Assembly (NCBI GenBank): GCA_041309605.1
Contig: JBFYZH010000036.1
Span: forward strand, 23,568-87,567
Direction of reading: 5' to 3'
Length of the DNA: 64,000 bases
From: Candidatus Krumholzibacteriota bacterium
GTDB lineage: Bacteria > Krumholzibacteriota > Krumholzibacteriia > Krumholzibacteriales > Krumholzibacteriaceae
In this document: positions 14,573-64,000 of the stretch, piece after piece
How the letters are laid out: each line of letters begins with the position of its first letter
Position numbering within the stretch: position 1 is the stretch's first letter
Made by a program: the position numbers and the translations under genes
The notes under the pieces: generated by a model
What the model saw: only the letters and a program-made list of their open reading frames with translations
The model's database searches: none
What the model was told of the DNA's origin: nothing

Positions 14573-14627
14573 GCACGGGATAATCGAAACCGATCGCAGG
14601 CTTTGTCCGGCGCGGGAAAGGAAAATA

Positions 14628-47571: not shown

Positions 47572-49086
47572 TTGCCCATGAAACCTTTGGAACTGGTTCT
47601 TGTGGTGGATGATTCCAAGGTCATCCGTTCCAGGATGAAGAACATACTTGAGCGCAACGGCTACGACGTCATCCTCAGGGAGGACGGGGAAGCCGGAGTG
47701 CTGGCCGCGCTGGAGTACGGTCCGGATCTCATAATAATGGATCTTAACATGCCGCGCATGGATGGGTTTACGGCCAGTTCCATGTTGAAACGCTATCCAC
47801 AGACGCGTAACATGCCGATCGCCGTATTCACCGATGAGAACGAGACGCAGAGGAAGGTCGATTTCTTCGGGATAGGGGTCGAGGATTTCATCCTGAAAGA
47901 CGCCGATGAAGCCGAAGTCACGGCGAGGGTCGGCGGGCTGCTCAGGTGGAAAAAAAACCGCGACAACCTGGCGCAGGAAAATAACAAACTCGGCAACATC
48001 ATCGATATACTCAGCGATCTCGTGATCATCTTCGACACCGCAGGCAAGCTGGTCTTTTACAACAGGGCGGCGGGCCACAGATTCAGGCTGATTCCCGAAC
48101 TGATCCAGGAAAAGACGATACTTGAAATTCTTCCCGCCGCCGGGAAAGTGCGGGATCTGTGCCGGTACATAGACACAAGAGAGGAGATCCACGATCAGGA
48201 AGTGGAGATAGACCATGGAGAAACCGGAGTCAGGCACTATATGGCCGATATAAACAGGATTTACATAGGCCTGAGCGAGGATGTCGGCGGAGCGTTCATT
48301 CTCAGGGACATCACGGGGGAAAAGGAGGCCCAGCGTCTGAAAACCGAATTCTATTCGATGATGGCCCATGAAATGAGGACTCCGATCAGCGTTGTTCTCG
48401 GTTATACGCAGTTGATACTTGACGGCAGGGCCGGAGAGATATCCGCGCTTCAGCAGGAATTTCTTCGAGGCGTCGAGGAAAAGGGGAAGGTCCTGATAAA
48501 ACTGGTGAACGATTTCCTGGAAGTGTCAAGGCTCGAGAACAAGTTTATCCGGCTCGACCCGTCCGTATTCGATATCTCCATTCTGGTCACCGAGACGGTT
48601 TCGGGGATCAGGCTTCTCGCCGAGAACAAGAACATCAGCCTGACATGCGGATGCCGCGGGGTGCCGATCCTGCTGCGTGCCGACAGGGACAAACTCGAAC
48701 ATGTCATGATAAATCTCGTCGAGAACGCGATCAAGTACACCGAGGAAAACGGAACCGTCACGGTCAGGTGCGGCGTCGAAGACGGCGGGGCCGTGATCGA
48801 GATCGAGGATACCGGCATCGGCATGTCCGGCGAAGAGCTGAAATTCATTTTCGACAGGTTCACAAGGGCCGGCAACGCCGAAAAAAAGAAGATCAAGGGT
48901 ACCGGTCTCGGGCTCGCGATCGTCAAAGAGATCGTCGATGCGCACAAGGGCAGGATAGATGTCGAAAGTCAGGATGGCAAGGGCAGTGTTTTCCGCTTAT
49001 GGATCCCTGGCGTTGTTGAACGGCCGGATGCTCCCGCAGGAATCGTCCGCGAAGTCGAGATACCCGTTCCTGATATGCGGGAATGA
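47572..49086 (+). CDS. Hybrid response-regulator receiver / histidine kinase
   Basis: N-terminal REC domain (LVVDDS...D at DLNMPRMDG). HisKA H-box MAHEMRTPIS. HATPase_c N/G boxes (NLVENAIKYT, GTGLGLAIV). Confidence 0.75.
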   Translation: MPMKPLELVLVVDDSKVIRSRMKNILERNGYDVILREDGEAGVLAALEYGPDLIIMDLNMPRMDGFTASSMLKRYPQTRNMPIAVFTDENETQRKVDFFGIGVEDFILKDADEAEVTARVGGLLRWKKNRDNLAQENNKLGNIIDILSDLVIIFDTAGKLVFYNRAAGHRFRLIPELIQEKTILEILPAAGKVRDLCRYIDTREEIHDQEVEIDHGETGVRHYMADINRIYIGLSEDVGGAFILRDITGEKEAQRLKTEFYSMMAHEMRTPISVVLGYTQLILDGRAGEISALQQEFLRGVEEKGKVLIKLVNDFLEVSRLENKFIRLDPSVFDISILVTETVSGIRLLAENKNISLTCGCRGVPILLRADRDKLEHVMINLVENAIKYTEENGTVTVRCGVEDGGAVIEIEDTGIGMSGEELKFIFDRFTRAGNAEKKKIKGTGLGLAIVKEIVDAHKGRIDVESQDGKGSVFRLWIPGVVERPDAPAGIVREVEIPVPDMRE

Positions 49087-49249: not shown

Positions 49250-49265
49250 GGGCATGTCTCTTGCC
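49250..49265 (+). promoter_or_regulatory. Candidate sigma54 (-24/-12) promoter upstream of flgF
   Basis: gGGCATgtctcTTGCC has GG and GC separated exactly as in the TGGCAC-N5-TTGCA consensus. The GC is ~28 nt upstream of the flgF ATG. Confidence 0.3.
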
Positions 49266-49292
49266 GTTGGGGATGCAGTATGGAGGAATACG

Positions 49293-49991
49293 ATGCTTAA
49301 AGGTATTTCGATTGCGGCTAACGCCATGAAAAATCAGACCGCGAGAAACGACATGATCGCCAACAATCTGGCCAATGTCGATACGACGGGGTTCAAAAAG
49401 GATATCGCCTTGTTCCAGCTCGGGAAAACCGGCGGGGGACAACCCGACACAACCGTTCGCCTTGTCACGGCCCATGAACAGGGTCCGCTGACCCGTACCG
49501 AAAGAGCCCTCGACCTGGCCATACAGGGCGACGGTTTCTTCGTCGTTGAAACAGAAGATGGGGAAAGATACACAAGGGCCGGTTCGTTCGTCGTCACGCC
49601 GGAAGGCCACCTCGCGACAATCGATGGCAACAAGGTGTCCGGCGCGGCGGCAATTCCTCCGGGCGAGATCGAGGTGTCCAGAGAAGGTAACATCAGCGTG
49701 AACGGAGTCGATGCGGGGCAGATCGGGGTCGTAACGTTTGAGGACGCGACAAGGCTTGAAAAAACCGGATCGGGGCTCTTCGCTGCACCGGACGATATGT
49801 CCTCGTCGGAGATGCCCGAGGAGGAACGCTTCATATTGTCGGGATTTCTCGAGAACAGCAACGTCGAGGTGATAACGGAGATGACAGACATGATTACCGC
49901 GCTCAAAGCCTACGAGATATCCCAGAAAGCGCTTAAATCGGAGGATGAGATACTTCACCTGCTGATAAGTACGGTCGGCAAGACGGGATAA
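49293..49991 (+). CDS. flgF: Flagellar basal-body rod protein FlgF
   Basis: Flg_bb_rod N-terminal motif (NDMIANNLANVDTTGFK) and C-terminal rod domain. Immediately upstream of flgG. ATG at 49293 follows GGAGG. Confidence 0.7.
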   Translation: MLKGISIAANAMKNQTARNDMIANNLANVDTTGFKKDIALFQLGKTGGGQPDTTVRLVTAHEQGPLTRTERALDLAIQGDGFFVVETEDGERYTRAGSFVVTPEGHLATIDGNKVSGAAAIPPGEIEVSREGNISVNGVDAGQIGVVTFEDATRLEKTGSGLFAAPDDMSSSEMPEEERFILSGFLENSNVEVITEMTDMITALKAYEISQKALKSEDEILHLLISTVGKTG

Positions 49992-50066
49992 ATCAATGAC
50001 GTCGATCAATGCGGGATATTTATACATGAACCGGCCGTGCGCCGGAGACAGGAAAGCGAGGTCGAT

Positions 50067-50855
50067 ATGATCAGGGCTCTTTCGACCGCATCGTCTGGCA
50101 TGCAGTCACAGCAGGTATTCATCGATAATATCGCGAACAACCTGGCAAACGTGAACACGCCGGGTTTCAAGAAGTCGCGTGTTGAATTCCAGGATCTTCT
50201 ATACGAGCGCGTCGGGCCGGTGGGCGCCTCCAGGATGACCGGTTCGGCCGACCCGGTGTTCAGCCAGATCGGCCACGGTGTTCGCCTTGCCGCCACCACG
50301 AAAATATATAACCAGGGCGCTTCGCAGAGTACGGAAAACCCGATGGACATGATGATAGACGGAGACGGGTTCTTCCAGATCCTTCTTCCCGACGGGACTT
50401 TCGCCTATACGCGCGACGGAGCGTTAAAGCTCGATTCAGACGGGAACATTGTGACTTCGTCCGGGTTCCAGGTCGAACCGGCCATCAGCCTGCCGCGCGA
50501 AACCACCGACCTGATGATAGCGGGCGACGGGATCGTGTCGGTGCTTCTTCAGTCGGAACAGGAACCGGCCGAACTGGGCCGTTTCGAACTGGTCCGCTTT
50601 CAGAATCCGGCCGGACTCAGGAACATAGGCCATAACCTCTATGCCGAAACGGTGGCGAGCGGCCCCGCGATACTGGGAAACCCCGGTGAAGAAGGGATCG
50701 GCACCATCCAGATGGGGTTCCTGGAGATGAGCAACGTGAGCGTGATAGAGGAAATGATAGGCATGATAACCGCCCAGAGGGCGTACGAGATAAATTCCAA
50801 GGCTGTAAAGACATCGGAAGAGATGCTCGGCATCGCGGCCAATCTCAAGAGGTAA
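50067..50855 (+). CDS. flgG: Flagellar basal-body distal rod protein FlgG
   Basis: 262 aa. Motifs MIRALSTASSGMQSQQ...IANNLANVNTPGFK and the C-terminal ...QRAYEINSK motif. Confidence 0.85.
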   Translation: MIRALSTASSGMQSQQVFIDNIANNLANVNTPGFKKSRVEFQDLLYERVGPVGASRMTGSADPVFSQIGHGVRLAATTKIYNQGASQSTENPMDMMIDGDGFFQILLPDGTFAYTRDGALKLDSDGNIVTSSGFQVEPAISLPRETTDLMIAGDGIVSVLLQSEQEPAELGRFELVRFQNPAGLRNIGHNLYAETVASGPAILGNPGEEGIGTIQMGFLEMSNVSVIEEMIGMITAQRAYEINSKAVKTSEEMLGIAANLKR

Positions 50856-50864
50856 AGCGGGAAG

Positions 50865-51827
50865 ATGAGCAAGATGACTTACATGACGGCGTCCATTGTT
50901 TCAGCGGCGCTGCTGCTCGCGCCGGGCGAATGCGGGGCGGCGGTGCTGACGCTTCGCGAATCCATCGAAACGGAAAGCGACACGGTCAGACTTTCCGATA
51001 TAGTTCTGGAGGATCTCGCAGGCATCGAGGACGTTGTACTCATCGACAGCCCTCCGTGGGGCTCCAAGAAGAACCTGTCGCGCAACTTCGTCGCCAGCCG
51101 CCTCAGGAATCGGGACGTGGAAATTCACGGGCCGATCGGCGTGATCGTCACAAGGAAGATGCTGGAGAAAAGCGCCGAGATACAGTCCGCGCTCGGCGAA
51201 AAACTACGCGGGATGTTCGCTCAGTCCAGGTGGAATGAAACCGGCGGCAAGCTGGAGCTTGAATTCAGGAATTTTCCCGCGAGTCTGCCGGTGCCTCCCG
51301 GCGAAGTCACCATCGAATGCGAACTTCCGGCCAACATATCGAGCTATCAGGTCGTCTCCTTCACCGTCACGACCGGGTCCGGTTTCAACAGGCGCTTTTC
51401 GACCGGCTGCCTGTTTCACCTGATGGCCGACTGCGCAGTCGCCACCAGGGATATCGGAAGGCGGGAAACGGTGGCCGAGGCGGATATCGAGTGGGCGGAG
51501 ATGGACATGGCCTCGTGCTACGGGATGCCGGTCACCGAGAAGACGGATATCCTGGGCATGAGGGTCGACCGCTACGTTAAAAAGGGAAGTGTCATATCCC
51601 TGGACGCCGTCGAAAGGATACCCGAGGTGATGAAAGGGGAGGCCGTGATTCTCCAGGTATCGAAGGGTCTCATGGTGGTCAGCGCGTGGGGCGTGTCGCT
51701 GGAAGACGGATACAGGGGCGACATGATCCTGGTCAGGAACAGCGCTTCGGGGAAAATCGATAAATATGAAGTCGTCGACAAGGGAAAGGTTTCCCCCCTG
51801 TCCGCCGGCTCGAGGGAGGGCAGATGA
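50865..51827 (+). CDS. flgA: Flagellar P-ring assembly chaperone FlgA
   Basis: Signal peptide and C-terminal SAF domain (VKKGSVISLDAV...GDMILVRNSASGK). Position before flgH/flgI. Confidence 0.6.
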   Translation: MSKMTYMTASIVSAALLLAPGECGAAVLTLRESIETESDTVRLSDIVLEDLAGIEDVVLIDSPPWGSKKNLSRNFVASRLRNRDVEIHGPIGVIVTRKMLEKSAEIQSALGEKLRGMFAQSRWNETGGKLELEFRNFPASLPVPPGEVTIECELPANISSYQVVSFTVTTGSGFNRRFSTGCLFHLMADCAVATRDIGRRETVAEADIEWAEMDMASCYGMPVTEKTDILGMRVDRYVKKGSVISLDAVERIPEVMKGEAVILQVSKGLMVVSAWGVSLEDGYRGDMILVRNSASGKIDKYEVVDKGKVSPLSAGSREGR

Positions 51828-52399
51828 TGGCGGGGAGAATGTTTACGGCAGCCATGATACTGGTCCTGATGTCCGGAGCATCGAACGCGCAGCGTCCTCT
51901 CTGGGACGAGGAAGGATCGTTGTACTCCAATCTCAAGGCCTTCAGGGTGGGGGACGTCGTCACGGTCATCATTCAGGAGCAGTCCTCGGCGGAGAGCAGC
52001 GCGAAAACGGACACGAAGGTACAGGGCGAATCGAAGGCTGGGCCGGGTATCGGCACTCTCGATTTTATTTCCCTGTGGGGTCTGACGAACGAGTCCAAGT
52101 ACAAGGGAGACGCCAAAACATCCAGGTCGGGACAGCTCGCCGCCCGCATCACGGTCAAGATCTCGGGGATATTGGAAAACGGGGATTATCTGGTCGAGGG
52201 AAACAGGGAAGTGAATATAAACGGCGAAAGGGAAAGGATCACCCTGAGCGGAGTGATCAGACCCAGGGATATCAATTCCGACAACACGATACTCTCGACA
52301 TACGTGGCCGATGCCAGGATAATGTACGACGGCAAGGGGCACATCGATTCGGGGCACGAACCCGGGATAATAACCAAGATCATCAACTGGTTTTTTTAG
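51824..52399 (+). CDS. flgH: Flagellar L-ring protein FlgH
   Basis: Signal peptide, then FlgH family sequence (SLYSNLKAFRVGDVVTVII...GNREVNINGE...). Overlaps the flgA stop. No lipobox Cys. Confidence 0.8.
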   Translation: MMAGRMFTAAMILVLMSGASNAQRPLWDEEGSLYSNLKAFRVGDVVTVIIQEQSSAESSAKTDTKVQGESKAGPGIGTLDFISLWGLTNESKYKGDAKTSRSGQLAARITVKISGILENGDYLVEGNREVNINGERERITLSGVIRPRDINSDNTILSTYVADARIMYDGKGHIDSGHEPGIITKIINWFF

Positions 52400-52412
52400 G
52401 AGGAAGAGCGAA

Positions 52413-53546
52413 TTGCCGCGATTTCTTGAAAACAATAACGGGTGTTTCCGGATGATAACGGCCGCCATCATCGTTCTGGCCGTTCTTCCTCCCGCCGGAG
52501 CGTCGTGTACCGTCCGGGTCAAGGATGTCGCCAGCGTGGCGGGTACAAACGATATCCAGCTGATCGGCTACGGCCTGATAGTCGGTCTCGGCGGGACGGG
52601 TGACGGCAACAAGAGCGCATTCACGGTCAATTCGATAGTAAGCATGCTCGAAAAACTCGGCATTACCGTTTCGCCCGAGGAAATAAAGGTGAAAAATGTT
52701 GCGGCCGTGGTGGTTACGGCTGAACTTCCCCCGTTCACCGCGCTCGGGACGAGGATCGACGTCACCGTATCGTCCCTCGGCGACGCAAGCAGTCTCGAAG
52801 GCGGCCAGCTCCTGCTGGCGCCTCTCAGGGCTTACGACGGCGTGACCTACGCGGTGGCCCAGGGAGCGGTCTCGATAGGAGGCTTCAATATCGACGCAGG
52901 TGCGGGAAATGTTTTCAGGAGAAATCATTCCACAGTCGGAAGGGTTCCTGAAGGGGCCATAATCAAAAGGCAGCCGGAAGGCGAAGTCGTCACCGACAAC
53001 AAGTTCATACTGACTCTCGACGATCCCGATTATCAGTCGGTGACGAATATCGCCGAGCAGATAAACAATACCTTCAGGATGAAGCTGGCGTCGGCGCTTA
53101 ATTCGAAATCCGTGGAAGTCAGCGTGCCTCCGGAATACAGGCTGAATCCGGTGGCGTTCATAGCGAATGTGGGAAGGATGGAAGTCGCGCTCGATATCAC
53201 GGCGCGGGTGGTCATAAACGAAAGGACCGGCACGGTCGTCATAGGCGGGGAAGTTGAGATAGACGAAGTCGCGATCGCGCACGGGAATCTCCAGGTGGAG
53301 ATAAGGGCGAGTTACGCGGTGAGCCAGCCGATGGCGTTCGGCGACGGCGAATCCGTCGTCGTGCCTGAAATAGAGACCAAGGTCGAGGACAAGGAGGCAA
53401 GGCTGTTTGCGCTGAGGGAATCCAACACGGTGAGCGACATAGCCGCCGCCCTTAACGAACTCGGCATCACTCCAAGGGACATGGTGGCCATCTTCCAGGC
53501 TTTGAAAAGGGCCGGTGCGTTGAGGGCCGAACTCGTGATCATGTAA
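52413..53546 (+). CDS. flgI: Flagellar P-ring protein FlgI
   Basis: TTG start with strong RBS AGGAGGAAG (the alternative ATG at 52452 would shorten the product). Motif RVKDVASVAGTNDIQLIGYGLIVGLGGTGDG. Confidence 0.85.
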   Translation: MPRFLENNNGCFRMITAAIIVLAVLPPAGASCTVRVKDVASVAGTNDIQLIGYGLIVGLGGTGDGNKSAFTVNSIVSMLEKLGITVSPEEIKVKNVAAVVVTAELPPFTALGTRIDVTVSSLGDASSLEGGQLLLAPLRAYDGVTYAVAQGAVSIGGFNIDAGAGNVFRRNHSTVGRVPEGAIIKRQPEGEVVTDNKFILTLDDPDYQSVTNIAEQINNTFRMKLASALNSKSVEVSVPPEYRLNPVAFIANVGRMEVALDITARVVINERTGTVVIGGEVEIDEVAIAHGNLQVEIRASYAVSQPMAFGDGESVVVPEIETKVEDKEARLFALRESNTVSDIAAALNELGITPRDMVAIFQALKRAGALRAELVIM

Positions 53547-53562
53547 AGGACTGGAGCCTGAC

Positions 53563-54048
53563 TTGAAAATACAATCCGAGATTTCCGCCGGATCGGCCGG
53601 CACCACGAATGGGGACGGGCGCGATCTCAAGAAACTGGAGAAGGCGGCGAGGGATTTCGAATCGATCCTCATCGGCCAGTTCTTCAAGCTCATGCATTCG
53701 ACGGTGGGAGACGAGGGTGCGATCGAAAAATCATTTCCCCGCAAATTGTACGAGGAGATGATGCAGGACGAGTTCGCCAGGGAATTCTCCGGCCAGGGAG
53801 GGTTCAACCTGCAGAAGGTTCTCGTGGAAAGATACACTTCCGGCAAACCGGCGGAAGTCGACGCGAATCGCCATCTGCCCGTGGTCGAGGATGCGAAGTC
53901 GTTGAAGAGGCCGGAGGAAGGGTTCAGGGGACAAACGGCCGGATTCGGTCCCCTGCGGCACAGGATGAATCACGGAAAGATAAGTGGAAAAGAATACATG
54001 CAGTTGCAGGGCGACGGTGCGGTCGCCGGGGATGAGCGAAAAAAGTAA
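53563..54048 (+). CDS. Rod-binding protein (FlgJ N-terminal-domain-like, no muramidase domain)
   Basis: Rod_binding-like helix LKKLEKAARDFESILIGQFFKLMHST. 161 aa. Located between flgI and flgN/flgK. Confidence 0.55.
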   Translation: MKIQSEISAGSAGTTNGDGRDLKKLEKAARDFESILIGQFFKLMHSTVGDEGAIEKSFPRKLYEEMMQDEFAREFSGQGGFNLQKVLVERYTSGKPAEVDANRHLPVVEDAKSLKRPEEGFRGQTAGFGPLRHRMNHGKISGKEYMQLQGDGAVAGDERKK

Positions 54049-54058
54049 GGAGAGCGCA

Positions 54059-54592
54059 ATGGCTGTGAGAATTCTGCAGACGGAAGATATGGAAGACAGG
54101 GTGTTGTCCCTGTGCGAGATTATGAAAAACGAGACCGAGGTATGCAGGGAGTTGCTGGATCTTTCCAACGCCGAGCAGGAATACCTCATTAAGAGCGATA
54201 TCGACAGCCTTGCGCGCAATACCGACAGGATGAAGGCGGTGATCGAGAACCTGAAGCAAAGCCAGGCGTCGAGACACAGGTACATGGATGAAATCGCCTC
54301 CGAAATGGATATCGCCGTGGATGCGATGACGATAAAAACGATAAGGACCCTGGTGAAGTCCGACCTGTCCGAAAAGCTCCATAAAACCAGCCGGGAGCTG
54401 ATGAAGATAGGGGAAAGGCTTTATCGGGCCAACCATAACACGGTTTATCTGATCGACTTCTCACTCGAGCTTCTCGATCAGCAGAACAGACTATGGGCCG
54501 AGCTTGTATCCGATAAAAAGGAAGGGTACGCCGAGAAGGGGAACAAGCCCGGCGCGCACACGTACCCGCTTATCGTCGAAAAAAAGGTCTGA
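54059..54592 (+). CDS. flgN: FlgN-like flagellar export chaperone
   Basis: Helical 177-aa protein with strong RBS AAGGAGAG. Positioned directly upstream of flgK, as FlgN normally is. Weak family similarity. Confidence 0.45.
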   Translation: MAVRILQTEDMEDRVLSLCEIMKNETEVCRELLDLSNAEQEYLIKSDIDSLARNTDRMKAVIENLKQSQASRHRYMDEIASEMDIAVDAMTIKTIRTLVKSDLSEKLHKTSRELMKIGERLYRANHNTVYLIDFSLELLDQQNRLWAELVSDKKEGYAEKGNKPGAHTYPLIVEKKV

Positions 54593-54617
54593 GGAATCCT
54601 TTCCGAGGGAGTCGTTG

Positions 54618-55994
54618 ATGGTAACGCTTTTTGGAATGCTGGAGATGAATAAACGAAGTCTTTTTACCTCGCAGTTTTCGCTGCAGACGACGAACCACAA
54701 CATCTCCAATATAAACAATCCGGGTTACTCGAGGCAGGAAGTGCTTCTTGAGTCCAACATACCCACCGTGACCCCGGACGGAATCCTCGGAAACGGTGTT
54801 TCGATCTCCACCATAAGGAGAGCGACCGCCGATTTCTACACCAGGCAGCTTCGCGAGGAGACGTCGTCCATCGGAGGCTGGGACGTGAGAAGCTCCACGC
54901 TTTCGCACATGGAGACGGTGTTCAATGAGCCGAGCGATTCGGGGATGGCCAACATGATCGACGACTTTTTCAAGTCGTGGAACACCCTCGCCTCCCACTC
55001 GGAGAGCGGATCGGCGCGGATAGACATCGTGGAATCCGCGACGACCCTGTGCTCGATGTTTCATTCGATGAATCAGTCTCTCGGTGAGCTGGAGGGCAAT
55101 CTCAACGAACAAATCATCGACGATATAGCGGTCGTCAACGACATATCCGTGAAAATAGCCGGGCTGAACAGCATGATCGTGGAAAACGAATCGATCGGCC
55201 AGACGGCGGGGGATTACAGGGACGAGAGGGACAGGCTGCTCGAAGAGCTTTCAAGGATAGTGAAGGTCGATACGAAGGAGGACGCGTACGGTTCCGTCGA
55301 CGTGTTTATCGGCGGGGTGAACATCGTGCACAAGACGCAGACCGTGCCGCTGGACGTGCTGCTCGACGAGTCGGGAACGATCGTCGACATGCGGGTAACC
55401 CTGAAAGGACGGTCGGTCCCGATCGTGCTTGAAGACGGAGAACTGGGGGGGCTTCTGGCGTCCAGGGACGGATATCTGAAGGACGCCAGGGAATCGCTCG
55501 ATTACCTGGCGTCCTCGTTCATCCGGAACGTCAACGAATTGCACAGAAACGGGTGGACGCCATCGGGCGCCGGGTTCGATTTCTTCCAGGGAACGGACGC
55601 TGCGACGATCGGAGTCGCCTCTGCCATACTGAACAATCCCGACCTGGTGGCAAGTTCCTACGACGGTACGGTCGGGGACAACTCCCTGGCGAACGATATC
55701 GTCGCGTTATCGACAAGACAAATTTCGGCGGACGATCCGTTGACGCTTAACGAAAGATATGAAGCGCTTGTCGCATCGCTGGGCATTCACGGGGCGAACG
55801 CCGAAAACATGGTCAGAAACGAGGAAATGATCGTGTCGAATCTGAGGATGAGAAAGGAAAGCATCACCGGTGTCAGCCTGGACGAGGAACTCGTGAACCT
55901 GACGAAGTTCCAGCAGTCTTACGAGGCCGCCGCTCGGGTGATGACGACTGTAACCGAATTGATAGACACCGTTCTGAACATGAGCGTGATCTAG
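54618..55994 (+). CDS. flgK: Flagellar hook-associated protein 1 FlgK
   Basis: N-terminal rod/hook motif (NHNISNINNPGYSRQ) and C-terminal conserved helix. 458 aa. Confidence 0.8.
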   Translation: MVTLFGMLEMNKRSLFTSQFSLQTTNHNISNINNPGYSRQEVLLESNIPTVTPDGILGNGVSISTIRRATADFYTRQLREETSSIGGWDVRSSTLSHMETVFNEPSDSGMANMIDDFFKSWNTLASHSESGSARIDIVESATTLCSMFHSMNQSLGELEGNLNEQIIDDIAVVNDISVKIAGLNSMIVENESIGQTAGDYRDERDRLLEELSRIVKVDTKEDAYGSVDVFIGGVNIVHKTQTVPLDVLLDESGTIVDMRVTLKGRSVPIVLEDGELGGLLASRDGYLKDARESLDYLASSFIRNVNELHRNGWTPSGAGFDFFQGTDAATIGVASAILNNPDLVASSYDGTVGDNSLANDIVALSTRQISADDPLTLNERYEALVASLGIHGANAENMVRNEEMIVSNLRMRKESITGVSLDEELVNLTKFQQSYEAAARVMTTVTELIDTVLNMSVI

Positions 55995-56005
55995 AGGAGT
56001 GACGG

Positions 56006-57565
56006 ATGAGAATTTCGTTTCAGATGCTGAGCCAGGGGCCGCTGAGAAACATGTCCAGGAGCCTTGAACGGTATTCCAATCTCAACATCAAGGCCGGTTC
56101 GATGAAGAATTTCCAGAAACCATCCGACGATCCGAACGGTGTCAGGAAAGCGATGGCGTTCGACACCCTCATAAAGCAGAACGAAATATATTCGACGAAT
56201 ACGTCCTCGGCGGAGATGTACCTTGATATGGCCGATTCGACGCTGCTCGCAGTCAAGAACCTGGTGGATTCGGCAAGAACCATCGCCCTGGAGATGCGCA
56301 GTTCGACGGCGGATTCGGGCGATAACGTGAGAATGAGCGCATCCATCGAAGTCGGCGGCATCATCGACGACGTCATGGATCTGATGAATACCAGGTTTCA
56401 TAACAAGTACATCTTTTCGGGACACATGGTCGACACGCCGGCGTTCGAACGGGTGGGCGGAGAAATCCAGTACCAGGGAGACGAGAGTTCCATACAATTG
56501 AGGGTCGGTCCCACGAGGATGATCGACGTGACCGTACCCGGATCCGAGTTTCTCTCCATCGGCGAAACCCATAGAATGGTTTCCGCCCACATGACTACGA
56601 TGCTCGTATCGTCGGCGTTGCTCGAGGACCTGAACCTCGGCGGCGGCGTGTTCAGCGGTGCTTTCAGGATGACGAACGGGATCGGTGTTTCTTCGGATAT
56701 CGATATTACGTCCTGTGAGACGCTGGACGACGTGATCGCCCTGGTAAACGGTTCGGGCCTGGGAATCATCGCGGGGGTGAATACGGATAACGGAATTTCT
56801 CTTTATGACGCGGCGGGCAACGGCCTGATGACGGTGACGGAACTGGGCGGAGGAACCAGCGCGTTCGATCTCGGCATACTCGGCACGAGTATAGGGGACA
56901 CACTGATCGGAAGTCCACTGAATCCGCAGTTGTCCGAAGAAAGTCCCGTTACCGGAGTCGATGTGATGGGAAGCATCGCGTTGACAGGAATGAGGATTAC
57001 CGTAAACGGCGTCGCGCGGGACGTCGATTTTCTCAATCCGTCCTACCCTCTGACGGTGGGCGACGTGATCGAGAGGATCAACATGTCGGTTCCGGGAGTC
57101 ACGGCCCGTCTGAACGATACGCGGGACGGGATCGAGCTCATTTCGGACTTCGAATTTACGGTGGAGGAACTGGGTGCAGGGACCACCGCATCGGACCTGG
57201 GTCTTGGCGGAGCGTCTGAAACGTTCGAACCTTACAGTCTTTTCGGAGCCCTGGAGAACCTGAGGACGGCCCTGGAAAACAACGACCCCGGGGCTCTCGA
57301 TTCGATTATCGGTCAGTTGCAGTACGTGACGGATCATGTGCTGGAAGTGGAGGCGGAAGTCGGCGCGAGGGGAAAGCAGGTTGAATCCATTAAAAACCAG
57401 CTGGCGGACAACAGAGTCAACCTGCAGGAGAACCTCTCGCTGATCGAAGACGTGGACCTGAGCGAAGTTCTCACGGAACTTGCGGAATCGCAGGTCGCCT
57501 ACGAGGCCGCTCTGCAAACGGCGTCGACGATCTATAACCTGAGTCTGCTCAACTACTATCGTTGA
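56006..57565 (+). CDS. flgL: Flagellar hook-associated protein 3 FlgL (unusually long, 519 aa)
   Basis: Flagellin-like N-terminal and C-terminal helices. Position between flgK and fliW. Confidence 0.7.
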   Translation: MRISFQMLSQGPLRNMSRSLERYSNLNIKAGSMKNFQKPSDDPNGVRKAMAFDTLIKQNEIYSTNTSSAEMYLDMADSTLLAVKNLVDSARTIALEMRSSTADSGDNVRMSASIEVGGIIDDVMDLMNTRFHNKYIFSGHMVDTPAFERVGGEIQYQGDESSIQLRVGPTRMIDVTVPGSEFLSIGETHRMVSAHMTTMLVSSALLEDLNLGGGVFSGAFRMTNGIGVSSDIDITSCETLDDVIALVNGSGLGIIAGVNTDNGISLYDAAGNGLMTVTELGGGTSAFDLGILGTSIGDTLIGSPLNPQLSEESPVTGVDVMGSIALTGMRITVNGVARDVDFLNPSYPLTVGDVIERINMSVPGVTARLNDTRDGIELISDFEFTVEELGAGTTASDLGLGGASETFEPYSLFGALENLRTALENNDPGALDSIIGQLQYVTDHVLEVEAEVGARGKQVESIKNQLADNRVNLQENLSLIEDVDLSEVLTELAESQVAYEAALQTASTIYNLSLLNYYR

Positions 57566-57588
57566 GCGTGGAAAGGAAGGATGAAGCG

Positions 57589-58059
57589 ATGAAGATCAAG
57601 TCGTCAATCTTCGACGAGATTGAATTCGATGAGAAGGATATCATCGTCCTTGAGCATGGTTTGATAGGCCTGAGCAACCTGAGGCGGTTTGTCCTGATGG
57701 ATTTCGAGGACGAAACCGCGTTTCACTGGTTCCAGTCGGTGGACGAACCGGACATGGGGTTCGTCGTGTCCGAGCCGACCTTGTTCGACGGCGAATATAC
57801 CTTCGCAATCGATAGAAAAATCAAGGAGGAGCTCGAGATCGGGACCGGCGACGACATTGTCGTGATGTCCATCGTGACCATAAAGGACAAGGACAGCGCG
57901 ATAACGGGCAATCTGCTCGGACCCATCGTGGTGAACGCCACCAGGCACAGGGGAGCCCAGATAGCGCTCAATCCCGAAGATTACAGCACGGCCACGCCTC
58001 TTAGGCAGCCGGATCTCGAGGCGATCTCCAACAAGACAGAGGTCGGCTGTACGGCGTAG
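57589..58059 (+). CDS. fliW: Flagellar assembly factor FliW
   Basis: FliW family sequence (IEFDEKDIIVLEHGLIGLSNLRRFVLMD...FHWFQSVDEPDMGFVV). RBS AAGGAAGGA. Confidence 0.85.
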   Translation: MKIKSSIFDEIEFDEKDIIVLEHGLIGLSNLRRFVLMDFEDETAFHWFQSVDEPDMGFVVSEPTLFDGEYTFAIDRKIKEELEIGTGDDIVVMSIVTIKDKDSAITGNLLGPIVVNATRHRGAQIALNPEDYSTATPLRQPDLEAISNKTEVGCTA

Positions 58060-58067
58060 AGGTTGAA

Positions 58068-58325
58068 ATGCTCGTTCTTACAAGGAAGCTCAGGGAAAAA
58101 GTCGTCATATCGACGGACATCATAGTAACTGTTCTTCATATCGACGGCGACCAGGTGAAACTCGGAATACAGGCGCCGAAGGATGTCAGTATACACCGAC
58201 AGGAGATATTCGACGAGATCGTCAAATCCAACAGGGAAGCTCTCCTGCAGACCAGCGACAAGAACGGAGTCTTTCAATCGATCATGGACAAGAAACTGAA
58301 AGCAGGAGGAAGTGAAATAATATGA
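58068..58325 (+). CDS. csrA: Carbon storage regulator CsrA (flagellin translation regulator)
   Basis: MLVLTRKLREKVVISTDIIVTVLHIDGDQVKLGIQAPKDVSIHRQEI is the canonical CsrA sequence. Short C-terminal extension. Confidence 0.9.
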   Translation: MLVLTRKLREKVVISTDIIVTVLHIDGDQVKLGIQAPKDVSIHRQEIFDEIVKSNREALLQTSDKNGVFQSIMDKKLKAGGSEII

Positions 58326-58484
58326 CAGACATCCCGGCCCGCGCCGGGTGATCCGAACAACGCAATCAAACAGGGCGGACTTCCCTTGTGCCGGCGGGCC
58401 GATTTTCAGGGAAACGGCCGGACCGGCGCTCAGGGAGGCCAGGGGAGGAACCCCGAACGTTATCCATGGAAGGAGCGTGTCGTT

Positions 58485-59876
58485 ATGAGTTTCAGGATCA
58501 ACCACAATATCAGCAGCATCAATGCTCTGAGAAACCTCGGCAAGACGGAGTCGTCCGTCTCCAGATCGCTGGAAAGGCTGAGCTCGGGTCTTAGGGTGAA
58601 CAGGGGCGCCGACGATCCGGCCGGACTTGTGATCTCCGAGAGCATGCGCGCGCAGCTCTCCGGCGTCAGGCAGGCCATCGAGAACGCCGAGACGGCGACG
58701 GCGATGATTCAGACCGCCGAAGGAGCCATGAACGAGATCCACACCCTCCTGAACAGTATCCGCGAACTGGTTATCCACGCGGCTAACACGGGCGCCAACG
58801 ACGCGGTGATGCTCGCCGCGGACCAGGACGAGATCGAGAACGCGATCGCGACGATAGACCGAATCGCCGGTCAGACGCAGTTCGGCGTCAAGAAACTGCT
58901 CGACGGATCGAGCGGCGTGACCGGAACGACTACGGACTCGAGCGTGGCCTTCTATGACGCGACCGAAGCCTCGGTGACCGGTTCCTACGCGATCACGATC
59001 ACCACACAGGCCGAACAGGCCCAGGCGACAGCCGGGACGGACCAGACGGCGGTGCTCGGAGCAGCAGAGACGCTCACTATAAACGGTGTGGACATCTCGC
59101 TGGCGTCAGGCATGACCCAGGCCCAGGTTGTCGATATGATCAATACCTATACGAATTCGACCGGAGCGACCGCTTCAATAGTCGCCGGGGCGCTTACCGT
59201 GACGTCGAGAGGGTACGGTTCCGATGTCACCGCGTCGGTGGTGTCCAATGTCGCCGCCGCGACCACCAGTACAGGAATAGGGATAACGGTGGTGACCGAT
59301 ACCGGTGTCGATATAGCAGGCACCATCGGCGGGCTTGCCGCGACCGGCCGGGGAATGGTGCTTACCGGAAACGCGGGCACCGCTGTCGAAGGCATCGCGA
59401 TTTCCACCAGCATGGCGCCGGGAGCCGGCGGGAGCGTCAACATAACCAACAATTCGCTCGTATTCCAGGTCGGAGCCAACAAGAATCAAACGGTGACGAT
59501 AACGCTGAACCGGCTCGTGACCACGGGGATCGGCACGGGGGTGACGAGCAACATGTTCAACAGCCTCAACGACATCACCGTTCTTACCGCCGACCAGGCC
59601 CAGGACGCGATCGAGATCATCGACAGGGCCATCCAGCAGGTCTCTGCGAAGCGCGGCGAACTGGGCGTGTTCCAGAAGAACACACTGGAAAGCAGCACGG
59701 CCAACCTGGCTATTTCGGAGGAGAACCTGATCGCCGCGGAATCGGTCATAAGGGACACCGATTTTGCGCAGGAGATGGCCGAACTTACCAAAAACCAGAT
59801 CCTCCTGCAGTCCGGCACGGCGATGCTTGTTCAGGCGAACCAGATACCTCAGGTCGTGCTGCAGCTCCTGCAGTAG
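58485..59876 (+). CDS. fliC: Flagellin (copy 1)
   Basis: 463 aa with conserved flagellin N (MSFRINHNISSINALRNL...) and C (...LQSGTAMLVQANQIPQVVLQLLQ) domains. Thr/Ser/Ala/Gly-rich central region. Confidence 0.9.
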   Translation: MSFRINHNISSINALRNLGKTESSVSRSLERLSSGLRVNRGADDPAGLVISESMRAQLSGVRQAIENAETATAMIQTAEGAMNEIHTLLNSIRELVIHAANTGANDAVMLAADQDEIENAIATIDRIAGQTQFGVKKLLDGSSGVTGTTTDSSVAFYDATEASVTGSYAITITTQAEQAQATAGTDQTAVLGAAETLTINGVDISLASGMTQAQVVDMINTYTNSTGATASIVAGALTVTSRGYGSDVTASVVSNVAAATTSTGIGITVVTDTGVDIAGTIGGLAATGRGMVLTGNAGTAVEGIAISTSMAPGAGGSVNITNNSLVFQVGANKNQTVTITLNRLVTTGIGTGVTSNMFNSLNDITVLTADQAQDAIEIIDRAIQQVSAKRGELGVFQKNTLESSTANLAISEENLIAAESVIRDTDFAQEMAELTKNQILLQSGTAMLVQANQIPQVVLQLLQ

Positions 59877-59933
59877 AACATGGTCCGAGCCCGCTCAACC
59901 TGACGAGCGCGGCCACATCCACGCGAACTCACG

Positions 59934-59976
59934 GGGCTTTTACCGGTCATATACGGTGGAAGCCCCTTTCTTTGAT
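59934..59976 (+). terminator. Possible terminator hairpin after flagellin 1
   Basis: Stem ggggctt/aagcccc with a ~20-nt structured loop, followed by tttcttt. Confidence 0.35.
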
Positions 59977-60029
59977 ATCCGGCCCGGCATGATCAGGACA
60001 CCTGTCTACGTCGCTCCCGGAAAATAATT

Positions 60030-60058
60030 CTCAAGTCCGCCCGACACCTGCCGAAAGG
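60030..60058 (+). promoter_or_regulatory. Candidate sigma28 (FliA)-type promoter of flagellin 2
   Basis: cTCAAGT-N13-GCCGAAAG resembles the TAAAGTTT-N11-GCCGATAA class. Located ~125 nt upstream of the ATG. Confidence 0.3.
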
Positions 60059-60181
60059 TTATGACAGAAAACGAATGCCATTTAGCGCGGTGCGTGTACT
60101 GGAAAGGAGTGTGCGCTGCGCCGGTGACAGGGAAGTCAACAGGGATCGGCACGATCCCAAACCATGGAAGGAGGAGCTTTA

Positions 60182-61573
60182 ATGAGCTTCAGAATCAACC
60201 ATAACCTCAGCTCGATCAACGCTCTGAGAAACCTGGGACAGACCGAGTCTGTCGTAGCCAAGTCTCTCGAACGTCTGAGCTCAGGTCTACGTGTCAACAG
60301 GGGTTCCGACGACCCCGCGGGTCTTGTGATTTCGCAGAACATGAGAGCCCAGATCAGCGGTATTCAGCAGGCCATCGAGAACGCCGAGACGGCGACGGCG
60401 ATGGTGCAGACGGCGGAGGGGGCCATGACGGAAATTCACAACCTCCTCAACAACATCCGCGAACTGACGATCCATGCGGCCAACAGCGGCGCAAACGACA
60501 GCGTCATGCTTTCAGCAGACCAGGACGAAATCGACAACGCGATCGCGACGATCAACCGTATCGCGGCGCAGAGCCAGTTCGGCACAAGGAAGCTGTTCGA
60601 CGGGTCGAGCGGCATGTCGGGAACGACCACTCTTACGACGGTCACTTTCCTCGACGCCACCGAGAACACCGTTGCCGGCACCTACGCGATAACGATTACA
60701 ACGGCGGCCGACCAGGCGCAGGCGACAGCCGGCACTGACCAGACAGCGGTTCTCGGCGCCGCCGAAACGCTCACGGTCAACGGCGTATCGATCGCCCTTA
60801 CAGCCGGCATGACACAGGCCCAGGTGGTCACGGCGATCAACAACTACAGTTCCTCAACACAGGCTACCGCCTCGGTAGTCGCCGGCGCCCTCACCATCAC
60901 GACCGAGGGTTACGGATCGGCCGAAACGGCTTCAGTCGTGTCCACGGTCGCGGCCGCCACGACAAGCACCGGCGTCGGCACGACAGCCGTCACCGATACC
61001 GGCGCCGACATCGCCGGCACGATAGGCAGCCTCGCCGCGACCGGCAACGGTCTCGTGCTCACAGGCGACGTCGATACGGCCGTCGATGGACTTTCGGTCT
61101 CCACGGCTCTTGCCGCAGGCGCTGCCGGCAGCGTTACGGTAACCGACAATTCCCTTGTCTTCCAGGTCGGAGCGAACAAGGGACAGACGGTCGAGATAGC
61201 CCTGAACGCTCTGTCGGCCACCAATATCGGAACAGCGGTTTCCGGGAACTCGTTCAACAACCTGAGCGAGATAGTCGTGACAACCGCCGACGGCGCCCAG
61301 GATGCCATCGAGATCGTCGACAAGGCGATTCAGCAGTTGTCGGAGAAGCGCGGCGAGCTCGGCGTGTTCCAGAAGAACACCCTGGAGAGCACCGCTATAA
61401 ACCTCGCGATTGCCGAGGAGAACCTTGTCGCCGCGGAATCGATCATCCGCGACGTCGACTTCGCCAGCGAGATGGCGGAGCTGACCAAGAACCAGATACT
61501 TCTGCAGTCCGGCACGGCCATGCTTGTGCAGGCCAACCAGATACCGCAGGTGGTATTGCAGCTGCTCCAGTAA
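60182..61573 (+). CDS. fliC: Flagellin (copy 2)
   Basis: 463 aa, collinear with copy 1 at ~80% identity. RBS GGAGGAG. Confidence 0.9.
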   Translation: MSFRINHNLSSINALRNLGQTESVVAKSLERLSSGLRVNRGSDDPAGLVISQNMRAQISGIQQAIENAETATAMVQTAEGAMTEIHNLLNNIRELTIHAANSGANDSVMLSADQDEIDNAIATINRIAAQSQFGTRKLFDGSSGMSGTTTLTTVTFLDATENTVAGTYAITITTAADQAQATAGTDQTAVLGAAETLTVNGVSIALTAGMTQAQVVTAINNYSSSTQATASVVAGALTITTEGYGSAETASVVSTVAAATTSTGVGTTAVTDTGADIAGTIGSLAATGNGLVLTGDVDTAVDGLSVSTALAAGAAGSVTVTDNSLVFQVGANKGQTVEIALNALSATNIGTAVSGNSFNNLSEIVVTTADGAQDAIEIVDKAIQQLSEKRGELGVFQKNTLESTAINLAIAEENLVAAESIIRDVDFASEMAELTKNQILLQSGTAMLVQANQIPQVVLQLLQ

Positions 61574-61592
61574 GCTGGTTTCCGTTTCCAAA

Positions 61593-61628
61593 AGCCTCCC
61601 CGGCTGTCGCCGGGGAGGCTTTCTTCGA
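61593..61628 (+). terminator. Rho-independent terminator after flagellin 2
   Basis: 12-bp stem agcctccccggc/gccggggaggct with loop tgtc, followed by a T-rich tract. Confidence 0.7.
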
Positions 61629-61805
61629 TTGCCGCATCAGGATCGCGGCTCCATCGTAACCGGTCCGCCTCTCTGGTAAGTTTGAAACGGGAAATAATTT
61701 CCCGATATCGGCGGTCTCATCAATTATCAATAAAGAATTATCCGCCGCGGCCGACAATTCATACCATGGAAGAGTGATTCGAATTTTCGAAAGGGGAATA
61801 ATATC

Positions 61806-64000
61806 ATGGCTGGTGTAGGAGGAGTAAGCGGGCTCATAACGGGTCTCGATACCGTCGATCTGATCAGCAAGATGCTCGATCTGGAGCGCCGGCCCATAAC
61901 CAAACTGCAGACAAGGATGGCGACCAATCTCGATTTGAAAAGCGCCTATGAGACGCTGGAAGCCAACCTGATGGCTTTGAAGATCGATGCGAGAAACCTT
62001 CAAAGGCGGGATCTTTTCAAGACAATAACGGCCGGATCGTCCAACGAGGACGTCGTCACGGCGACGGCTTCGGGATCGGCCTCGATCGGGAGTTACTCGC
62101 TTTCCGTCTCGCAGCTCGCGCAGAACCACCAGATCGCGTCCGGAGTTTTCTCAAGCAAGGATGAGTTGTCCGTGGGGACCGGCACGATCACGATAAGCGT
62201 GGGCAGCGATTCGCCGGTCGAGATAACGGTGGATTCCAGCAACAATACGCTGGAAAAGGTGGCCGCGGCCATAAATTCCTCGGGAGCCGACGTCAGGGCG
62301 GTCATCGTGAATATCGGAGGGGAGGATGCGGAGTACAAGCTCCTGATATCCGGCGGGGAAACCGGGGAGTCGCGAAGAATCGTGATGGACGAGGATCTTG
62401 CCGGAGGAGCTGGGTTGCAGCTCGGAAATGTCGAAGAAGCGTCAAACGTCGTTTGGTCCGGAAGTTCCGTCGCCGCTTCGTCGGGAAATTACACCGGCAA
62501 CGCGGATGCGACCTTCACCTTTTCAGTGGCGGAGGGGGGCGGGGGAACTGTCGGAACCGACACGATACTTCTCGAATACACCGATGGAAACGGAATCTCG
62601 GGAACGGTTACGATCCCGTCCGATTATACGGCCGGGTCGAATGTGCATGTATATGGCGGCCTCGAGATATTCCTCGGCGCCGGCACGGTGATCGAGGGTG
62701 ACAGCTTCACCGTGAACGTGGAATCGTCGACCATACAGGCGCCCGTCAATGCGATGTTCACTCTGGGAAGCGGCGCCGGCGGGGGAACGCCGGTCGTTCT
62801 GGAAAGCGCCACAAACACGGTCTCGGACCTGATAGACAACGTCACGCTGGAACTTCTAAGCGTGTCCTCCGGTTCGCCGGTAAAGATAGATGTAGCCGTC
62901 GACATAGATGAAATGGTCGAAAACATCCAGACATTTGTCAACCGCTACAGCGATGTAGTCAAATTTTTCAACAATCACTTCAAATACGACGAGGATGCCG
63001 GGGCAGGAGGCAATCTTTTCGGGGAGTCATTCGCCATCAGGCTCAACCAGGCCGTCAGGCACCAGGTCACCGATCTTGTCGAGGGACTCGACCAGCAACT
63101 CACGAGTCTCTCGGTGTTGGGAGTGAAAACGCTGACCGACGGAACGTTGACGGTCGACGCAGCATCGTTGAGATCGACGATAGAAAACGATCCAGACGCG
63201 GTAGTAAACCTTTTTTCATCGATGGGGCGGACTACCGATGCTGATGTGCAGTTTCTTATCGCCGGCTCCTCGACCGTTCCTTCGCACATGGTAGATCCTG
63301 ACGGCTATGACATAGAGATAACGATCGCAGCGACCAGGTCCGCCTACTCCGGCGTGTCGATCGCGTCCCCGTCGGCGGTATCTCCGATTGTGATCAATTC
63401 GACCAACAACACGTTCAAAATTACTCTGGACGGGAATGAGACAGGGGAGTTGTCCATCGCCGACGGTTCCTACACGTCCGGGGCGGAACTGGCTTCGGCG
63501 ATCGAAAGCGCCGTCAACGGCGCATCCGAAGTGAACAATTCGAGGATCTCGGTCCAGTACGTCGACGATGGCGGCGGGAACGGTCACCTGCAGTTCGTTT
63601 CGGATCAGTACGGTTCGTCCTCGACGGTGGAGTTCGAGGAGGTCGCCGGAAACTCGATCTATTCGACGATCGGCGTATCGACCGGGCAATTGAGCAGGGG
63701 GACGGACGTGGCGGGAACGATAAACGGCGAGGAAGCAACTGGAGCGGGCAGGCACCTGATAAGCAATAGCGACAACGAGTACACGGCCGGACTTCAGCTC
63801 CTTGTGACGATCACCGCCGAACAACTTGCCGTACAGGGAAGCAGCCAGGGCAAGGTGGTTGTCACGAAAGGGATAGCCTCGAGACTGACCGAGTACCTCA
63901 ACGACCTGACCGACATTGAATCGGGAGCGCTGACGGGGAAAAAGACGGCGATCGAGGATGAAAACACGATTATGCAGGACCGGATAGATTTGCTGCAGGC
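61806..64000 (+). CDS. fliD: Flagellar filament cap protein FliD (3' end beyond window; at least 731 aa)
   Basis: Hand translation from the ATG at 61806 gives MAGVGGVSGLITGLDTVDLISKMLDLERRPITKLQ...SAYETLEANLMALK...YSLSVSQLAQNHQ, which is the FliD N-terminal signature. The frame is open to the window end (...ENTIMQDRIDLLQ). Confidence 0.75.
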   Translation, partial: MAGVGGVSGLITGLDTVDLISKMLDLERRPITKLQTRMATNLDLKSAYETLEANLMALKIDARNLQRRDLFKTITAGSSNEDVVTATASGSASIGSYSLSVSQLAQNHQIASGVFSSKDELSVGTGTITISVGSDSPVEITVDSSNNTLEKVAAAINSSGADVRAVIVNIGGEDAEYKLLISGGETGESRRIVMDEDLAGGAGLQLGNVEEASNVVWSGSSVAASSGNYTGNADATFTFSVAEGGGGTVGTDTILLEYTDGNGISGTVTIPSDYTAGSNVHVYGGLEIFLGAGTVIEGDSFTVNVESSTIQAPVNAMFTLGSGAGGGTPVVLESATNTVSDLIDNVTLELLSVSSGSPVKIDVAVDIDEMVENIQTFVNRYSDVVKFFNNHFKYDEDAGAGGNLFGESFAIRLNQAVRHQVTDLVEGLDQQLTSLSVLGVKTLTDGTLTVDAASLRSTIENDPDAVVNLFSSMGRTTDADVQFLIAGSSTVPSHMVDPDGYDIEITIAATRSAYSGVSIASPSAVSPIVINSTNNTFKITLDGNETGELSIADGSYTSGAELASAIESAVNGASEVNNSRISVQYVDDGGGNGHLQFVSDQYGSSSTVEFEEVAGNSIYSTIGVSTGQLSRGTDVAGTINGEEATGAGRHLISNSDNEYTAGLQLLVTITAEQLAVQGSSQGKVVVTKGIASRLTEYLNDLTDIESGALTGKKTAIEDENTIMQDRIDLLQ

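Follow-up and report, generated by a model that had tools for sequence, protein, structure and literature searches.

How a single co-oriented run of genes comes to encode the flagellar L and P rings together with a fliW-csrA-flagellin module is the question raised by the locus described here, which occupies the positions from 49.25 to 64 kb of a 64-kb stretch of contig JBFYZH010000036.1 (this whole stretch is referred to as the window). A first-pass annotation of the same DNA had described the locus as a mosaic and had reasoned the combination of both gene sets to be uncommon and under-described. For the work reported here, the gene calls in the window were tested with Pfam and NCBIfam (TIGR and NF) profile models at their curated cutoffs, and gene starts were refined by comparison with orthologues, whereby several of the mechanical starts of open reading frames (ORFs) turned out to lie upstream of the true ones. 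All flagellar genes from 49.25 to 64 kb form one run on the plus strand, to which all coordinates given below refer unless a minus sign is added, and all named genes pass a family model. As the order of these genes recurs in six related loci and the identity to relatives declines uniformly, the locus is very probably a native, vertically inherited late flagellar cluster of a Krumholzibacteriota-type bacterium in which flagellin would be controlled by FliW and CsrA. It is a standard late flagellar cluster, and no new kind of system is revealed by it.

The proposal that competes most directly with a native origin assumes either an assembly chimera or a recent horizontal mosaic, whereby a Firmicute/spirochaete-type fliW-csrA-flagellin segment would have been joined to a diderm rod/ring cluster at about 57.5 kb. 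Two observations lend themselves to it, namely that the best named CsrA matches outside the clade found in a word-indexed search are from Bacillaceae and that positions 57561-64000 correlate less well in tetranucleotide profile with the remaining window (0.84). When compared with the first 49 kb, the segment from 57.5 to 64 kb likewise reaches 0.84, as against 0.95-0.97 for ordinary 6.4-kb chunks, and this is the first of the points that have to be held against a native origin. The same segment (57561-64000) shows an AT skew of up to about 0.2, and the flagellin and FliD genes make up approximately 5 of its 6.4 kb; the low correlation probably results from the odd composition of these genes, and because the amino-acid make-up they encode is unusual the drop was not taken to document a foreign origin. 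The correlation of the rod/ring segment is also lowered (0.92), amounting to 0.89 with the downstream flagellar segment, and the GC level across the junction stays at 0.56-0.58.

What decides the matter is that the flgL-fliW junction, and with it the entire gene order, was found again in the loci L001 to L006, which come from assemblies of unrelated samples (L001 from Logan SRR13394437, L002-L004 from ENA (L002, L003) and Logan and of the Latescibacteria 4484_7 type, L005 and L006 from metagenome-assembled genomes (MAGs) in GenBank). The order shared by them is histidine kinase-flgF-G-A-H-I-J-N-K-L-fliW-csrA-flagellin(s)-(flaG)-fliD-fliS-fliT-flgM. Since independent assemblies agree on this order and on the flgL-fliW junction within it, the contig contains no chimeric join at 57.5 kb. 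Furthermore, the relatives rank by identity alike for flgF-flgI and for flgK-fliD, and this ranking holds gene by gene over the whole stretch flgF-fliD, so that similarity declines evenly over both halves of the cluster and no mosaic is indicated. FliW itself is about equidistant (33-40% identity over about 140 residues) from its counterparts in Firmicutes, Planctomycetota, Desulfobacterota, Spirochaetes and Gastranaerophilales. Considering the synteny in independent assemblies, the flat GC level and the uniform identity gradient, the chimera or mosaic was rejected as hardly conceivable.

The supposed rarity of the combination was not supported by a comparison of gene orders. For this, the window FliW was aligned with 14 homologues (15 sequences) and used for a scan covering one genome per GTDB species, from which the best 80 of at least 493 FliW-encoding stretches were obtained, with the window proteins being mapped onto them by tblastn; the resulting counts illustrate how common the layout is and are no census. 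Fifty loci reach 7 kb or more beyond fliW on its upstream side; in 21 of them flgI precedes flgK-flgL in the same orientation and csrA stands beside fliW, and flgH was detectable in 20 of these 21. Two further loci from Tepidisphaerales (L036, L068) possess flgH and flgI too, but their contig ends ahead of csrA. The layout with flgH/flgI upstream and the pair in the order fliW-csrA was found in Krumholzibacteriota and three further MAGs as well as in Planctomycetota (Tepidisphaeraceae, Phycisphaerae and the cultured Fontivita pretiosa, L028), while Thermodesulfobacteriota, Desulfobacterales and 'Deltaproteobacteria' show the same co-oriented arrangement with the pair in the order csrA-fliW; the series common to Planctomycetota and these groups reads flgF-flgG-(flgA)-flgH-flgI...flgK-flgL-fliW/csrA-flagellin. 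In Firmicutes, being monoderm, flgH and flgI were as expected not found, and neither were they in Gastranaerophilales, where fliW-csrA stands in another context: in L015, L018, L030, L033, L043 and other loci of these Melainabacteria, tblastn with the window proteins identified no flgK, flgL or flagellin gene within 10 kb. Throughout, the adjacency of fliW and csrA persists across phyla.

This agrees with published work on several diderms. FliW is known from beta-, delta- and epsilon-Proteobacteria, Spirochaetes, Thermotogae, Nitrospira, Deferribacteres, Planctomycetes, Acidobacteria and others (PMC4682653), and the function of the FliW-CsrA circuit has been documented in Campylobacter and Helicobacter (PMC7829508, PMC11905337); the epsilon-Proteobacteria, which the first-pass annotation had itself named as an example, are diderms. 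CsrA-FliW has been termed an ancestral system of bacteria with flagella (PMC13443453, citing Mukherjee 2011). The combination of flgH/flgI with fliW-csrA is hence a widespread and probably ancestral layout, usual in several double-membraned phyla.

The module at the centre of the locus is complete, as matches to PF02623, PF02599 and both flagellin domains document. The fliW gene (57589-58059; PF02623 1.2e-33, 115.9 bits as compared to a cutoff of 25), whose start was set at residue 10 of its ORF on the basis of aligned homologues, encodes a protein that retains the family-invariant residues N108, P112 and Q124 and whose closest solved structure is the FliW chain of the Geobacillus FliW-CsrA complex 5DMB (2.3e-19). 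Only 8 nt past its end starts csrA (58068-58325), which encodes the RNA-binding translational repressor of 85 residues (PF02599 9.3e-23; TIGR00202 86.2 bits, cutoff 70.1) and for which the CsrA chain of 5DMB was likewise identified as closest solved structure (4.9e-15). RNA binding by CsrA involves L2, L4 and the R6/R7 region together with the stretch from V40 to I47, which includes R44. In the window CsrA, whose sequence MLVLTRK...VSIHRQEIF aligns with the structures 5DMB, 1T3O and 2JPP, the residues L2, L4, R6, R44, I47 and N55 are conserved, and the N-terminal LVLTRK as well as the HRxEI segment are intact. The protein aligns to the Bacillus subtilis CsrA through residue 65 and possesses a C-terminal extension of approximately 25 residues as compared to the 61-residue E. 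coli chain 1Y00, an extension which in Bacillus forms the contact to FliW (PMC7652899). With this extended C-terminus and the neighbouring fliW, the window CsrA shows the hallmarks of the FliW-regulated subtype. As an observation on the side, some of the FliW homologues in the library (P0050, P0051, P0052, P0059 and P0069) are approximately 290-326 residues long and possess two FliW domains in tandem.

Downstream of csrA follow two flagellin genes of 463 codons each, flagellin A (58485-59876; Flagellin_N, PF00669, 7.6e-37, 126.9 bits; Flagellin_C, PF00700, 1.9e-22, 79.8 bits) and flagellin B (60182-61573; Flagellin_N 6.8e-35, 120.6 bits; Flagellin_C 3.8e-23, 82.1 bits; matched by NCBIfam also), which are 77% identical in a gap-free alignment. 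Leader A (58395-58484) is a putative CsrA-binding region that holds seven GGA triplets within its last 80 nt, including the motif CCATGGAAGGAG at 58464-58475, which lies on the Shine-Dalgarno sequence. Leader B holds six, and its motif CCATGGAAGGAGGA (60162-60175, of which 60162-60173 are the 12-mer) is also located on the Shine-Dalgarno sequence, where it may serve as a ribosome-blocking CsrA site; GGA counts as high as those of leaders A and B are reached by 0.9% and 2.8% of 80-nt segments, respectively. The exact 12-mer occurs in only two copies within the 64 kb, each preceding the ATG of a flagellin gene by 7-10 nt, and the motif is kept in L001, L002, L005, L006 and L008. Leader B is furthermore predicted to form, approximately 35 nt ahead of its Shine-Dalgarno motif, the hairpin UGAC-AGGGAA-GUCA (60125-60138), present in both the minimum free energy and the centroid fold, with a GGA in its loop that may be an upstream CsrA site. 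The fold of leader B is better than that of shuffled controls (z = -2.6), and in L001, L002 and L008 the sequence GACAnGGAnGTC is found at the position matching this hairpin. Taken together, these leader motifs fit translational repression by CsrA that is relieved by FliW. A search against Rfam identified no known RNA family in the flagellin leaders.

A strong hairpin (59933-59966) with a 13-bp stem, followed by TTTCTTTGAT, makes up an intrinsic-terminator-like element downstream of flagellin A (59933-59976). The consensus of sigma-28 promoters is TAAAGTTT-N11-GCCGATAA, which the sequence TCAAGTCC-N11-GCCGAAAG upstream of flagellin B (60031-60057) resembles; it is the sole match to a sigma-28 (FliA)-like promoter in the window, and the same motif also precedes flagellin genes in L001, L002, L005, L008, L009 and L016. 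A scan for sigma-70 promoters yielded sites no more frequently than expected by chance, and fliA is not present within the 64-kb window. In the L009 MAG, which possesses three tandem flagellin genes, a sigma-28-like CTCAAGT...GCCGATGA lies ahead of copy 1, and sigma-54-like TGGCA(C/T)-N5-CTGC motifs lie ahead of copies 2 and 3 (at approximately 12640-12800 and 14520-14680), which suggests, judging from these motifs, that flagellin paralogues are controlled differentially in that organism.

Based on these features, a working model can be formulated in which the CsrA dimer would bind the GGA motifs of the flagellin leader, namely the one in the upstream hairpin loop and the one overlapping the Shine-Dalgarno sequence, and would thus block translation. 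FliW would be sequestered by cytoplasmic flagellin, and, once freed upon the beginning of export, it would neutralise CsrA, whereby the synthesis of flagellin would match its secretion. Flagellin B would be transcribed from its own sigma-28-type promoter. Binding of RNA by CsrA, of CsrA by FliW and of flagellin by FliW is inferred here from the homologous systems of Bacillus subtilis, Campylobacter and Geobacter.

Besides the compositional drop discussed above, several observations weigh against a native cluster with FliW-CsrA control of flagellin. FliW scores slightly under the NCBIfam equivalog cutoff (120.2 as compared to 130), and FlgH, though well over its Pfam cutoff, remains below the NCBIfam equivalog cutoffs (159.8 as compared to 280). 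The fold of leader A is not significant when compared with shuffled controls (z = +0.3), richness in GGA is in part to be expected around a strong AGGAGG Shine-Dalgarno sequence, which itself contains GGA, and upstream of flagellin A no convincing sigma-28 motif was found, so that this gene may be transcribed by read-through from fliW-csrA or by another sigma factor. Finally, a machine-learning study predicts that few CsrAs of Krumholzibacteriota repress the hag leader of B. subtilis (PMC13443453).

Another explanation would take the GGA-rich motifs as mere strong ribosome-binding sites, FliW as only a flagellin assembly factor and CsrA as being without control over flagellin translation. A canonical AGGAGG is indeed contained in CCATGGAAGGAGGA, leader A lacks a significant secondary structure, and the more distant relatives L009 and L016 retain AAGGAG only. 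However, in five loci the conserved stretch continues beyond the 5' side of the Shine-Dalgarno sequence (CCATGGA), a separate GGA further upstream lies in a predicted hairpin loop whose position is conserved, fliW and csrA remain neighbours across phyla, and CsrA possesses the features of the FliW-associated type, all of which renders this explanation very unlikely.

Returning to control of flagellin by FliW and CsrA, the prediction that CsrAs of Krumholzibacteriota are mostly unable to repress hag implies that the RNA specificity may differ or may have drifted in this lineage. This allows for a further-reaching proposal, according to which CsrA and the flagellin leaders of Krumholzibacteriota and Latescibacteria form a lineage-specific, co-evolved pair, whose elements may be the conserved CCAUGGAAGGAGGA box and the GAC-AnGGAn-GUC hairpin, combined with a dedicated flagellar kinase and a differently anchored L ring (see below). 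If this held true, RNA specificity would have diverged from that of Bacillus, which would explain the predicted failure on B. subtilis hag; as a joint proposal, however, it has to be regarded as unlikely.

Somewhat more probable, though still rather unlikely, is the assumption that FliW-CsrA acts chiefly as a global regulator (e.g., of biofilm formation or metabolism), for which flagellin would be one of many targets or an indirect one. Biofilm formation in Geobacter sulfurreducens is influenced by both CsrA and FliW (PMC13407953), the regulons of CsrA change rapidly from species to species (PMC13443453), and a single csrA was seen within the 64-kb window. The location of csrA directly upstream of the flagellin genes and the presence of the same conserved GGA 12-mer on the Shine-Dalgarno sequence of both leaders speak against it; moreover, a global role is compatible with flagellin control and would add to it.

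Among the known systems, that of B. subtilis is informative for the control of flagellin by FliW and CsrA, as its locus flgM-flgN(yvyG)-flgK-flgL-fliW-csrA-hag ... fliD-fliS-fliT has the order flgN-flgK-flgL-fliW-csrA-flagellin-fliD in common with the window, and the Lysinibacillus and Paenibacillus loci in the scan show flgK-flgL-fliW-csrA-flagellin likewise. Both the C-terminal extension and N55 of CsrA are common to B. subtilis and the window. The hag leader of B. subtilis possesses two CsrA sites, one of them over the Shine-Dalgarno sequence (PMC7652899, PMC13443453), a layout to which that of leader B, with its putative sites, is alike. Unlike the window, Bacillus is monoderm and lacks flgA, flgH and flgI upstream; the B. 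subtilis locus also differs in that the window possesses two tandem flagellin paralogues and in that flgM is found downstream of fliT in the relatives of the window.

Diderm counterparts are provided by Geobacter and by the loci L011, L017, L023, L035 and L059 of Thermodesulfobacteriota/Desulfobacterales, where flgH/flgI are, like in the window, co-oriented upstream of flgK-flgL and csrA/fliW. For G. sulfurreducens a co-transcribed flgJKLMN-csrA-fliW operon was reported, and the interaction of Geobacter FliW with CsrA was demonstrated experimentally (PMC13407953). The pair stands in the order csrA-fliW in Geobacter and Thermodesulfobacteriota but as fliW-csrA in the window, and in some of the Thermodesulfobacteriota/Desulfobacterales loci flagellin is, unlike in the window, not directly downstream. 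The planctomycete F. pretiosa (L028) shows co-oriented flgF-flgG-flgH-flgI-flgK-flgL-fliW-csrA-flagellin as does the window; most proteins of Planctomycetota are 25-40% identical to those of the window, and tblastn with the window proteins detected neither flgA nor the flgJ-like gene nor flgN in them. In Campylobacter jejuni and Helicobacter pylori, the fliW, csrA and flagellin genes are scattered and are not known to be clustered with flgHI. Both species are diderm, possess L and P rings and use FliW as an antagonist of CsrA, with flagellin being controlled at the level of translation (PMC7829508, PMC5466977, PMC11905337).

The genes upstream of fliW were identified as follows, whereby the list of the first-pass annotation proved correct except for one gene that had been missed. 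The proximal rod gene flgF (49293-49991), the start of which was set by comparison with L001, matches Flg_bb_rod, LlgE_F_G_D1 and Flg_bbr_C as well as TIGR03506 (177.7 bits, cutoff 70), and the distal rod gene flgG (50067-50855) matches the Pfam rod domains and TIGR02488 flgG_G_neg (332 bits, cutoff 252.75). Next follows flgA (50865-51827), encoding the P-ring assembly chaperone (PF13144 ChapFlgA 2.9e-23; TIGR03170 89 bits, cutoff 54.65). Both ring genes score over their Pfam cutoffs: flgH for the L ring (51824-52399) matches PF02107 at 1.1e-48 with 165.5 bits, cutoff 27, over profile positions 4-170 of 172, and flgI for the P ring (52452-53546) matches the full PF02119 profile (1-343 of 343; 1.1e-126, 422.9 bits) and NF003676 (399.6 bits, cutoff 300), its N-terminus MITAAIIVLAVLPPAGAS being a signal peptide as judged by eye. 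The longest ORF covering flgH (51766-52455) lies in a frame other than that of the gene. Between flgI and flgN lies the previously missed gene (53563-54048), which encodes a FlgJ-like rod-binding protein (rod cap) devoid of a muramidase domain (PF10135 8.2e-07, 29.9 bits, cutoff 25.1) and has orthologues in the same slot in L001 and L002.

The N-terminus of the window FlgH, MMAGRMFTAAMILVLMSGASNAQRPLWD, comprises a signal peptide (…LMSGASNA/QRPLWD) without a lipobox cysteine, which is likewise absent from the FlgH of L001, L002, L005, L009, L010 and L016. In contrast to the window FlgH, that of the Thermodesulfobacteriota/Desulfobacterales loci L017, L023, L035 and L059 possesses an L-x-x-C lipobox. 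A lipobox is found in enterobacterial FlgH, yet membership in PF02107 does not demand one. Given a non-lipidated FlgH, the L ring may be anchored differently in the clade of the window.

Three long ORFs of 316-508 residues run antisense to the flagellar genes, at 51572-52522(-), 52383-53846(-) and 55991-57517(-). The two of them that were scanned (51572-52522(-) and 52383-53846(-)) have no Pfam match and were dropped as spurious, and all three are probably artefacts of GC-rich DNA that is poor in stop codons.

The junction is encoded by flgN (54059-54592; PF05130 1.2e-12; start refined), the chaperone of FlgK and FlgL, by flgK for hook-filament junction protein 1 (54618-55994; PF22638 FlgK_D1 1.5e-52; TIGR02492 333.8 bits, cutoff 170.75) and by flgL for hook-filament junction protein 3 (56006-57565), a long form of 519 residues which matches TIGR02550 with 203.3 bits (cutoff 127.2) and, weakly, Flagellin_N and Flagellin_C. 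The filament cap gene fliD starts at 61806 and runs off the window end beyond 64000, so that more than 731 residues are seen, while its orthologues have 779-783; it matches FliD_N (PF02465 4.7e-22, 78.9 bits) and FliD_C (PF07195 1.9e-32, 113 bits). FlgL and FliD are both far longer than their enterobacterial counterparts, which is presumably explained by extra central domains. The gap between flagellin B and fliD (61574-61805) measures 232 nt and holds no flaG, and FlaG is encoded between flagellin and fliD in L001 (14078-14458) and L002 (12441-12830).

Concerning the lineage, the nearest homologues of FliW and CsrA (62-76% identity) belong to MAGs of Candidatus Krumholzibacteriota, followed by Candidatus Latescibacteria, and the phosphoglycerate kinase encoded at 21 kb in the window is 77%, 73% and 69% identical to proteins of Krumholzibacteria/Krumholzibacteriota. 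These protein comparisons support an assignment of the organism to a candidate phylum close to Latescibacteria, and to the Krumholzibacteriota type; NCBI taxonomy places Krumholzibacteriota directly under Bacteria. The earlier guess of a lineage like the Fibrobacteres-Chlorobi-Bacteroidetes radiation was reasonable, and of the two markers cited for it the GWxTD domain was confirmed (439-1794). The other one, a tail of the type IX secretion system at 33391-35034(-), is weak, because the Por_Secre_tail match (21.6 bits) is under the cutoff of 27; the C-terminus matches FlgD_ig with 42.9 bits.

Flagellar and chemotaxis genes were reported earlier in a Krumholzibacteriota MAG (PMC10936416), and the window documents for this phylum an intact gene cluster for filament and L/P rings that includes the complete FliW-CsrA-flagellin module. 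This is a known kind of system in a little-studied uncultured candidate phylum, and it matters little beyond annotation; it adds support to the view of the FliW-CsrA-flagellin module as an ancestral one that accompanies flgK-flgL in monoderms and diderms alike, and the conserved leader motifs can be used to probe CsrA specificity where a published model predicts unusual behaviour.

The remaining window is ordinary chromosome, with mreB-mreC-PBP2-rodA, glycolysis genes, ABC transporters and the GWxTD-domain protein, and its only Rfam match is one tRNA gene (23529-23612). Directly upstream of flgF lies a gene for a hybrid response-regulator/PAS/histidine kinase (47572-49086; Pfam Response_reg, PAS_4, HisKA, HATPase_c), which holds this position in all Krumholzibacteriota/Latescibacteria loci examined with 51-67% identity (L001, 33-1520; L002, 1-1214; L005; L006) and which, judging from this conserved location, may serve as a regulator dedicated to the flagellum. 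Just ahead of the kinase gene and flgF, an S-adenosylmethionine-dependent methyltransferase and a family 2 glycosyltransferase (GT2) fused to a long array of tetratricopeptide repeats (TPR) are encoded (44465-45616 and 45627-47504), a GT2-TPR architecture near flgF which we take to resemble that of flagellin glycosyltransferases with TPR domains.

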